A stretch of 64,000 nt of DNA. Source: Eledone cirrhosa. Lineage: Eukaryota. Positions 7,501 through 10,500 of the stretch are shown here, piece after piece. The notes beneath the pieces are model-generated. The model ran no database searches. It saw only the letters and a program-made list of their open reading frames with translations, and was not told where the DNA came from. The stretch spans positions 8,370,001 through 8,434,000 of the forward strand of contig OZ024762.1 of the NCBI GenBank assembly GCA_964016885.1, read 5' to 3'. A program made the translations under genes and the position numbers. Position 1 is the first letter of the stretch; each line of letters opens with the position of its first letter.

Positions 7501-10500
7501 GATCTTGCTGAAATTATATTTGTATATATATATATATATATATATATATATATATATATGCAGAGGTTATATTTAATTTGTTGGGATTCAACAAGCTTAA
7601 ACATTTTTTTAAATAAGCTTAAACATTTTTATAACTTTTATAAACACTCAACAGAATAGTGGAGAAAATACACAATATAAATGGAAACTATATTTATAAA
7701 ACCATATTTATTTTATTATATATATTTCAAGAGGCACCAAGGCAAATTATGGTGCGCTTTCATCAAATAAAATACAGATATGTTTTATAAATAAATATTG
7801 ACATACCTGGAAAAAAAGACAACCTTAACGGTTGGAGCTTCCTGGATATATATATATATATATATATAATTCAATATATTAATAAATGGAAACTATATTT
7901 ATAAAACCATAATTATTTTATTATATATATTTCAAGGGCAACCTTGGTGCGCTTTCATCAGATAAAATACAAAATTTGTTTTATAAATAGTGACATAACC
8001 ATGGAAAACAACCTATTGCTGGATAGTCCTCTGCATATATATATATATATAAATATATATATATAATATATATATATATATAAGAAGCTATCAACCATGT
8101 CTAGGGTTATATATAAATATATATGATATATTACTTTTATTTTATTTGTTAACAGAGGAAGAACTTGTGAATATAAAGGATGTGAAAGACTTCCCATTAA
8201 CCATGTGGCTGATATGTGTCATCTGTGTAGCTTATTATGTAACCGTCTTCCCATTTATTGGACTTGGTCTGTGAGTATAGCTTCACATTTCTCCCTCCTC
8301 TCCTCTAATATATGTATATCTTAATATATAACTGTCTTCCCATATATAGGTCTAGGGCTGTGACTATAGCTTCACATTTCTCTCTACTCTTGTCTAATAT
8401 ATGTACAGCTTATTATGTAACTATTTTCCCATTTATCAGTCTAGGACTGTGACTAAAGTTTCACATGTCTCTGTCCTCTCCTCTCATATATGTATCATCT
8501 GTGAAACTTATGCAACTGTCTTCCCATTTATCAGTCTAGGACTGTGACTAAAGTTTCACATATCTCTGTCCTCTCCTCTCATATATGTATCATCTGTGAA
8601 ACTTATGCAACTGTCTTCCCATTTATCAGACTAGGACTTTGACTAAAGCTTCACATATCTCTGTCCTCTCCTCTCATATATGTATCATCTGTGTAGCTTA
8701 TTATGTAATTGTCTTCCCATTTGTCTTCACTTGTCCCAGTTTAATCTAACTCTCTTTTCTTTCTGTTTTATTCACAGAGTCTTTTTTGAAAATAAATTTG
8801 ATTTTGATGCAGCTTTGGCTGCCACAGTCAACAGGTAGAGTTCAAGTTTATATCTTTTATTCTTTTTGAAACAAAGGATTAGCACTCCTTCCTATTTTCT
8901 GATTTATGCATAGTTTTGCACGACTTGGAGCTTCTACCCTCATAGATAGGCTACCTTCTCCAAGACTTACAGAGCCACCGCCCTTCTAGATAGGCTACCT
9001 TCTCCGTGGCTTACAGAGCCAGTACCCTTCTAGATAGGCTACTTTCTCCGTGGCTTACAGAGCCAGTACCCTTCTAGATGGGCTACCTTCTCCAAGGCTT
9101 ACAGAGCCAGTACCCTTCTAGATAGGCTACCTTCTCCGTGGCTTACAGAGCCAGTACCCTTCTAGATAGGCTACCTTCTCCAAGGCTTACAGAGCCACCG
9201 CCCTTCTAGATAGGCTACCTTCTCCGTGGCTTACAGAGCCAGTACCCTTCTAGATGGGCTACCTTCTCCGTGGCTTACAGAGCCAGTACCCTCACCATCC
9301 CTAGATGAGCTTCCTTCCCCATAGCTTACCGAGCCACTACCCTCCTACATAGGCTACCTTCTCCATGGCTTACTGAGCCACAGCCCTTCTAGATGGGGTG
9401 TTTTCTTCACGGCCCTCCTAGATGGGCTACCTTCTCCATGGCTTACGGAACTATGGCACTCCTAGTTGGACTCCCTTCTCCATGGCTTAGAAAGCCACAA
9501 CCTTTCTAGATGGGCTACCTTCTCCATGGCTTACATCAAGCATGTCAAACTGAGGGTGCCCCGACGGCCACATGGGTCACATATGTGCTGTCTGAGGGCC
9601 ACACATTACAACTAATTTTTTAAATTTTATATCACAAAGATAAAACATGCTCACACTGTAAAAACCTTTGTGCGGGCCACATGTTTGGCATGTTTGTGTG
9701 GGCCACATGTTTGGCATGTTTGTGCGGGCCACATCTTTGGCATGTTTGTGTGGGCCACATGTTTGGCATGTTTGTGCGGGCCACATGTTTGGCATGTTTG
9801 TGTGGGCCACATGTTTGGCATGTTTGTAAAGGGCCATATGTTTGGCATGCGTGGCTTACAGAGTCAGTGCCCTCCTAGACAGGTTGCCTTCTCCATGGCT
9901 TACAGAGCCTATTTCTTGTCCATGTCTTGCCCCTTTTTGTTACTCCATAATTAATTAAATAACTAAACTAATTAACATGTATATATTTTCAGTATTGTAT
10001 ATATCATATCCGCGGTGGTTTCCCCAGTCAGTGGTTTTCTGGTTGACAAAGTTGGTAAAAACATCTTCTGGCTGTCCCTGGGTATTGTAGTGACTCTAAT
10101 ATGTCACATGGTTCTGGGGTTCACTTTCTTAAATCCCTTTGTAGCCATGGTATGTATAATGACTCTCACACACACACACTCTCATATACACACACACACA
10201 CACACACACTCTCATATACACACACACACACACTCTCATATACTCACACACACACACTTCCATATACACACATACACACACACTCACACTCTCATATACA
10301 CACACACACACACTCTCATACACTCACACACACACTCTCATATACTTGCACACACACACTTTCAAATACACACACTTTCATATATACACACACACATACA
10401 CTCTCACACACTTTCATATATATACACACACACACTCTCTCATATACTCACACATACACACACACACTCTCATATACTCACAAACACGCACACATTCTCA

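Follow-up and report, generated by a model that had tools for sequence, protein, structure and literature searches.

Penelope-like elements (PLEs) of the Hydra clade are defined by motifs of their reverse transcriptase (RT) and GIY-YIG domains, by canonical hammerheads and by (TA)n targets, and the octopus element Hydra-1_Obim is listed in this clade (Craig et al. 2021, PMC8557442). For the Poseidon element of Anolis (PAc), reverse transcription was found in vitro to start inside the RNA at two sites bounding a 'tail', and both target strands were cut and extended (Frangieh et al. 2024, PMC11167929). The PAc hammerhead cleaved only in the presence of protein and was dispensable for insertion in vitro; the exchanges C3G and G8C abolished its cleavage (PMC11167929). 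The presence of the tail at often only one end has already been published for Penelope-like elements, and the way in which these elements make inverted insertions is called unresolved in the literature that was accessible. Retrozymes are defined by tandem repeats with at least two complete motifs (10.64898/2026.07.22.740005, PMC7229834). In Octopus vulgaris, 31 recently active Penelope-like families were reported, and the accessible text of that paper mentions neither 'Hydra' nor 'ribozyme' (PMC13282606). A search of the literature on hammerheads in cephalopods returned no paper on the PLE family described here.

The window analysed comprises 64,000 nucleotides of Eledone cirrhosa DNA (assembly GCA_964016885.1, contig OZ024762.1, positions 8,370,001 to 8,434,000, forward strand), and coordinates are given as positions in this window (Table 1). 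Two hammerhead copies, termed A and B, are located in the intron 7221-8155 of MFSD1, in agreement with the original prediction. MFSD1 was identified by matches of the next exon and of a later exon to 8r8q_A (E 2e-9 and 1e-14, respectively), and the exons on either side of the intron are joined in one contig of run X4. Run X4 behaves like RNA because this contig is spliced. A back-joint of 7921 to 7717 was not among the X4 joints listed, and contigs of this kind cannot show strand, ends or circles. The hammerhead pair is antisense to MFSD1 and spliced out, and is thus likely an inert passenger.

Table 1. Features of the MFSD1 intron carrying copies A and B (positions in the window)
Feature	Position	Strand	Basis
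MFSD1 exon upstream of the insertion	7121..7220	+	GT donor at 7221; spliced to next exon in X4 contig
(TA)n tract at the 3' end of copy A (target)	7515..7559	.	TRF
Copy A: 5'-truncated pLTR, subfamily A, 'long' 3' end, ~90-nt tail	7560..7847	-	comparison with dispersed and ORF-linked copies
Type I hammerhead of copy A, C3U at 7766; predicted cut 7717/7716	7709..7774	-	descriptor scan
(TA)11 spacer between copies A and B	7847..7868	.	sequence
Copy B: 5'-truncated pLTR, subfamily B, 'short' 3' end	7869..8027	-	comparison with dispersed and ORF-linked copies
Type I hammerhead of copy B, intact core; predicted cut 7922/7921	7914..7969	-	descriptor scan
7-nt inverted stub matching the long 3' end of the element	8028..8034	+	sequence
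(TA)n tract on the other side of the insertion	8035..8082	.	TRF
MFSD1 exon downstream of the insertion	8156..8270	+	8r8q_A residues 251-286, E 2e-9; splice join

Copy A extends about 115 bp beyond the site as it was originally delimited, to 7560, and has a private 22-bp duplication in its tail (7587-7630). Copy B carries small deletions in loop II and near the 5' end. The inverted stub is likely the partner of copy B; its geometry is that of other inverted partners, and it is too short to prove this assignment. Intronic minisatellites with units of 95, 44 and 26 bp were present at 8235-8722, 8934-9535 and 9667-9849, respectively. The 95-bp unit starts in the downstream MFSD1 exon and resembles the 3' end of this exon.

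A descriptor scan of the window at the strict setting (at least 6 Watson-Crick pairs in stem I) returned exactly two motifs, both on the minus strand, and these are the two type I hammerheads proposed originally. The motif of copy B is composed of an 8-bp AU-rich stem I, CUGAUGA, stem II, GAAA, the palindromic UAUAUA and a UA cleavage site, so that its intact core could be read in the sequence as described. Copy A follows the same pattern but has U at position 3 (C3U), again as predicted. Stem II is an interrupted helix of 9 bp and stem III consists of 2 bp plus the palindromic loop; the term 'minimal', which had been applied to these motifs, is therefore a loose one. A scan with hammerhead models had also been proposed, and it was negative: the Rfam hammerhead models gave no match up to E 5 in 6500-9500, and what Rfam did return were low-complexity matches to microRNAs and snoRNAs, none of which came near its gathering score.

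Among 335 distinct copies gathered by homology alone, the core read CUGAUGA in 302, UUGAUGA in 11 and CUGACGA in 7. In copies of this set with an intact GAAA..UA frame, the hexamers were UAUAUA (154), UAUGUA (129) and UGCGCA (13), all of which are self-complementary if G-U pairs are allowed. The palindromic stem III of the dimer type, pointed out in the original prediction for this site, is supported. Covariation of the stems, which had been set as a test, was analysed with 47 of the 335 copies, hand-picked across eight groups. With the hammerhead structure imposed on them, 97.5% of the cells were paired and 87 cells were changed on both sides, whereby these copies are related and the counts do not represent independent events. 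All 500 shuffles stayed below both values, and in slid controls 38-53% of the cells were paired. The two-sided changes were distributed over 10 pairs, 8 of them in stem II and 2 in stem III; stem I had none and showed G-U variation only. The hammerhead fold is not a product of chance, its stems being supported by covariation.

In monomer folding, the hammerhead was not the lowest-energy structure in any of 7 copies, as would be expected of a motif dependent on a dimer or protein. The hammerhead would act as a dimer via the self-complementary hexamer, in the RNA of the parent element. A third hammerhead (31984-32048, located within 31950-32104 on the plus strand) belongs to group D, a more distant member of the same superfamily. 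It contains wobble pairs, a short 3' end, an intact CUGAUGA core and compensatory changes in stem II. Group E (L026, L051, L176, L264) and group F (L019, L073, L184, L202) are more distant hammerhead families; the hexamer of group E is UGCGCA, and head-to-head pairs are formed in this group, too.

Copies A and B had been described as head-to-tail copies of a tandem 205-bp unit. The spacing stands, since the predicted cut sites of the two copies are 205 nt apart, and the unit does not. Identity between the copies is 82% across some 140 nt, they are unequal in length (about 290 bp for copy A and 160 bp for copy B), and TA repeats separate them. The offset between them drifts from 205 to 195, and no 205-bp array was detected at the site by TRF. 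Among ORF-linked ends, the A-type ones matched copy A at 92-94% and the B-type ones at 82-86%; for copy B, identity was 90-94% with B-type and 87% with A-type ends. The distance from A to B amounts to 18 differences, versus 2-3 (B) and 7 (A) to the nearest other copies. A genome search with copy B yielded 733 first-look candidates, and those scored were dispersed and 91-98% identical over 145 nt. With copy A, 1,507 first-look candidates were obtained, a set separate from that of copy B; dispersed copies matched copy A at 83-87% along its full 287 nt and at up to 96% within the first 170 nt. On the basis of these identities, A and B are assigned to different subfamilies. Two other loci (L275, L276) are likewise head-to-tail meetings of two unlike copies, both cores being intact there.

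The parent element was recognized from longer copies, in which, on the strand of the ribozyme, 1.5-1.9 kb of AT-rich sequence and then GIY-YIG and RT frames are found upstream. B-type ends follow GIY-YIG frames at a distance of about 1.5-1.8 kb (L031, L032, L124, L127, L170, L171, L176), and A-type ends are located behind GIY-YIG frames as well (L179, L180, L182-L184). The suggested link to Penelope-like pseudo-LTRs (pLTRs) and the linkage to PLE ORFs that was to be looked for genome-wide were hence found for both types of ends. Ordinary pseudo-LTRs had been named as a second option. This option is the correct one for the identity of the pieces, even though its condition that copies always adjoin an ORF does not hold, most copies being short, dispersed, 5'-truncated ends. 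In subfamilies A and B the frames were broken, and none of their long loci examined carried an intact ORF. Copies of the structure pLTR-ORF-pLTR with open frames of 680-816 aa belong to the sister subfamily C, and its full-length copies often have an inverted pLTR in front. In one of them (L137), a pLTR is followed after about 50 nt by a 742-aa ORF, and this by an AT-rich 3' region of 1.8 kb, a second pLTR and (TA)n. A partial-tandem pLTR, an inverted 5'-truncated copy and an optional tail were present in L137-L140, L142-L144 and L176. The span from ribozyme to ribozyme is about 4.2 kb, with an AT-rich 3' region of 1.6-1.9 kb.

The subfamily C protein P0005, as read, contains RWR (position 37), DKT (118), YRDD, CxCX5C (601), a GIY-YIG-type segment, CxxC (699) and CxH (726). 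Long homologues have RWK in 63 of 99 cases and RW[KR] in 84 of 99, P0005 itself carrying RWR. Pfam gave a sub-threshold GIY-YIG match (E 0.003) and, for P0005, no RT match and no name of the protein. A homologue search returned 208 proteins, mostly unnamed, with a best identity of 40%; the named ones were from Argonauta hians. Judged by its linkage to one ORF with RT and GIY-YIG, the terminal repeat is that of an EN+ Penelope-like element. The motifs read on sister subfamily C, together with the (TA)n targets, point to the Hydra clade, and subfamilies A and B are classified as new subfamilies of this known clade. A search with one RT fragment gave 21,432 first-look candidates genome-wide. Several open frames of more than 700 aa occurred among the 150 candidates scored, which suggests recent activity of the family.

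A long pyrimidine tract, ended by CAG in most copies, closes the AT-rich region some 190 nt upstream of the hammerhead (at about 1370 in L011 and about 6170-6185 in L176). This tract resembles a splice acceptor, so that the AT-rich region of 1.6-1.9 kb may be a retained intron. The tail, in which an open frame exists, was considered as the start of the ORF; this was rejected, the start codon being located about 50-55 nt beyond the long end in full-length copies. LINE-type RT frames were present elsewhere in the window at 46728-49862 and 4385-6050, both on the minus strand, and are RTE-like and CR1-like by appearance.

The family has two fixed 3' ends (long and short), which are separated by about 85-90 nt and each coincide with a short TA-like patch. 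A TA tract directly adjoins 88 of 100 copies. The 5' junction of 20 of the 100 copies is at a landmark some 85 nt upstream of the core; another 25 extend beyond this landmark, and in 55 it is absent. Copies A and B both begin at it. A classable inverted partner was available for 59 of 100 copies (of the 41 set aside, 29 had no partner that was found, 10 had one without an end, and 2 were broken), and in 56 of these 59 pairs one end was long and the other short. After removal of 11 pairs counted twice, opposite ends were found in 46 of 48 events (binomial p 4e-12 versus one half), including two loci that look like duplicates of one insertion. The first classing of partner ends was contaminated by TA-only matches, and stricter limits were used for the final counts.

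Of 58 head-to-head pairs, 57 had both arms assigned to one subfamily. In 43 of the 58 pairs, the distance between the arms was smaller than that to the median copy of the group; it was larger in 7 and equal in 8 (some pairs are perhaps duplicates). In full-length copies, each of the two ends is followed by a copy of one motif of about 45 nt, with alignment scores of 50 and 53 versus shuffle maxima of 43 and 49 (1,000 shuffles); this comparison comprised 15 junction rows, some of which are the same locus twice. Folding of the pLTR-ORF junction gave structures that differ in two subfamilies, except for one shared hairpin in the tail. In those papers on Penelope-like elements that were accessible without subscription, as far as their text was available, neither a count of end alternation nor a repeated motif of this kind was found.

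With high confidence, copies A and B are 5'-truncated, hammerhead-bearing pLTRs of two sister subfamilies of Hydra-clade PLEs, likely derived from two separate entries into the same (TA)n in the MFSD1 intron. To produce such pieces, the protein of the element would bind its own RNA at the pLTR-ORF junction and nick (TA)n DNA. Reverse transcription would then start inside the RNA at one of the two sites, and run-off copying would stop at the preferred point upstream of the core, likely the 5' end of the RNA. The predicted outcome is pieces of about 190 bp and 280 bp, corresponding to copies B and A. Copy B would represent a short-end product with a long-end stub in inverted orientation, and copy A a long-end product.

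An alternative to two entries is a single insertion with a template jump, in which subfamily-A RNA was copied from the long start, TA repeats were added or crossed, and copying went on along subfamily-B RNA from the short start. Neither a target duplication nor an empty-site allele is readable in (TA)n, so that two events are not separable from one with a template switch by these means. Both pieces have the same direction and the same 5' landmark, one end is long and one short, the same order of short end, (TA)n and long end recurs in L276, and in L275 two subfamilies meet almost directly, separated by no more than a few AT bases. Nevertheless, a template jump appears improbable, and two events are the likelier reading because inverted arms share the subfamily label almost without exception. 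Moreover, copy B has an inverted stub of its own, as a complete event would have, and where thousands of copies target (TA)n, some tracts are expected to be hit more than once.

A further proposal is tentative, and we regard it as somewhat more likely wrong than right. One protein complex might bind the two copies of the RNA motif at the pLTR-ORF junction, nick both (TA)n strands and prime one cDNA from each start site on opposite strands. If this two-site priming were true, the family would preserve the insertion reaction of Penelope-like elements in unusual detail, and the head-to-head structure with one long and one short end (46/48 events) would be obligatory. It would also explain the tail, the inverted pLTR and the solo pieces of fixed length without self-priming on an antisense template.

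The arrangement of copies was analysed genome-wide. A 23-nt word of the ribozyme core, which covers subfamilies A and B and several sister subfamilies, had 8,184 exact copies, and its reversed control had none. Among the first 100 position-ordered copies on contig C1, 0 same-strand neighbours within 1 kb, 11 head-to-head pairs and 1 tail-to-tail pair were counted. For the genome-wide search of tandem and inverted pairs, an exact 16-mer was demanded in both copies. Head-to-tail matches numbered 0 at 156-186 nt, 1 at 187-216 nt, 2 at 217-247 nt and 3 at 276-306 nt, six in total over the periods covered (156-247 and 276-306 nt), and 472 head-to-head pairs were found at gaps of 140-170 nt alone. 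Three of the six matches were broken copies, two were meetings of unlike copies, and one was a local trimer (L277; G000:C1063, ~14000-14600). This trimer contains three head-to-tail units with periods of 251 and 238 nt, each core being intact, and its units share a piece of flanking DNA. It is interpreted as a local duplication, would come under the formal definition of a retrozyme, and appears to be the best retrozyme candidate seen in the family.

The intron site itself does not come under this definition because its copies are unlike, form no array, and include one core with C3U. Still, the two type I motifs have complementary hexamers and a spacing of 205 nt, and could by chance constitute a working mini-retrozyme, with a minus-strand transcript cut at both hammerheads to form a 205-nt circle. 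Li et al. (10.64898/2026.07.22.740005) argue for an origin of animal retrozymes from pLTRs, and the trimer L277 is a three-unit array of this very PLE family. The shortened loop of copy B, on the other hand, favours other hairpins, with a stem II probability of 0.2-0.3 versus 0.6-0.9 in two of three intact A/B copies, and a unit of A plus B was not seen elsewhere. The C3-G8 pair is needed for activity, and C3U impairs hammerhead cleavage. If the RNA folded as a dimer, the core of copy A would be required for one of the two cuts. A chance-born mini-retrozyme is accordingly given very little credence. That the site is the decayed dimer of a family of tandem non-LTR retrozymes with a monomer of about 205 bp can practically be dismissed: spacing and AT content are within the retrozyme range (150-450 bp, PMC7229834), but the six head-to-tail matches at the periods covered are set against hundreds of head-to-head pairs in one range, and the copies continue into PLE ORFs.

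The original prediction of a retrozyme or tandem family yielding circles of about 200 nt is not supported, given two different subfamilies, the near absence of head-to-tail neighbours in the genome-wide check for tandem arrays at the periods covered, and the C3U core. The MFSD1 intron contains a real hammerhead in an ordinary setting; it is the footprint of a mobile element and not a tandem ribozyme circle. As two retroelement stumps in an intron, the locus itself is of small import. The family represents a large, apparently recently active expansion of the Hydra clade, by which thousands of hammerhead motifs were added to the genome. The pairing of long and short ends, together with the motif behind each end, leads to a precise and testable prediction on inverted insertions of Penelope-like elements.

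As in Hydra-clade PLEs including Hydra-1_Obim of Octopus bimaculoides (PMC8557442), there is a single ORF with RT and C-terminal GIY-YIG, and DKT, the CxCX5C linker, CxxC and CxH are present. The hammerhead near the 3' end, the (TA)n targets, the partial tandems and the inverted 5' copies are further features in common with this clade. P0005 and the Hydra-1_Obim protein (PMC8557442 supplement) share blocks when compared by eye, whereas P0005 has RWR instead of RWK. The Eledone hammerhead differs from that of Hydra-1_Obim in all three stems (PMC8557442, File S2). Hydra elements are generally under 3 kb, compared with about 4.2 kb from ribozyme to ribozyme here, and their tail usually has 30-40 nt instead of about 85-90 nt (PMC8557442). 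Unlike Hydra-1_Obim, the Eledone family comprises several sister subfamilies with thousands of copies.

The PLE hammerheads of Cervera and de la Pena (2014, PMC4209133) are likewise type I motifs in pLTRs, with a weak palindromic helix III suited to dimers and thousands of variable genomic copies. Their minimal form devoid of helix III differs from the Eledone motif with its 8-bp AU-rich stem I, 9-bp interrupted stem II, hexamer palindrome and A at the cleavage position. Metazoan non-LTR retrozymes (Cervera and de la Pena 2020, PMC7229834; Li et al. 2026) have in common with the intron copies a non-coding piece of a few hundred nt, a type I hammerhead and pLTR ancestry. In contrast to these retrozymes (PMC7229834), the site has no tandem arrays of like units and no two consecutive complete cores, and the Eledone copies, known here from DNA sequence, are in direct continuity with PLE ORFs. 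As in PAc (PMC11167929), the targets are AT-rich and the 3' ends occupy two fixed positions, which delimit a tail located downstream of the hammerhead where pLTR and ORF meet. Reverse transcription of PAc starts within the ORF, at a site without homology to the target (PMC11167929), whereas both Eledone ends are located upstream of the start codon, at TA-like patches, each followed by one copy of the motif.
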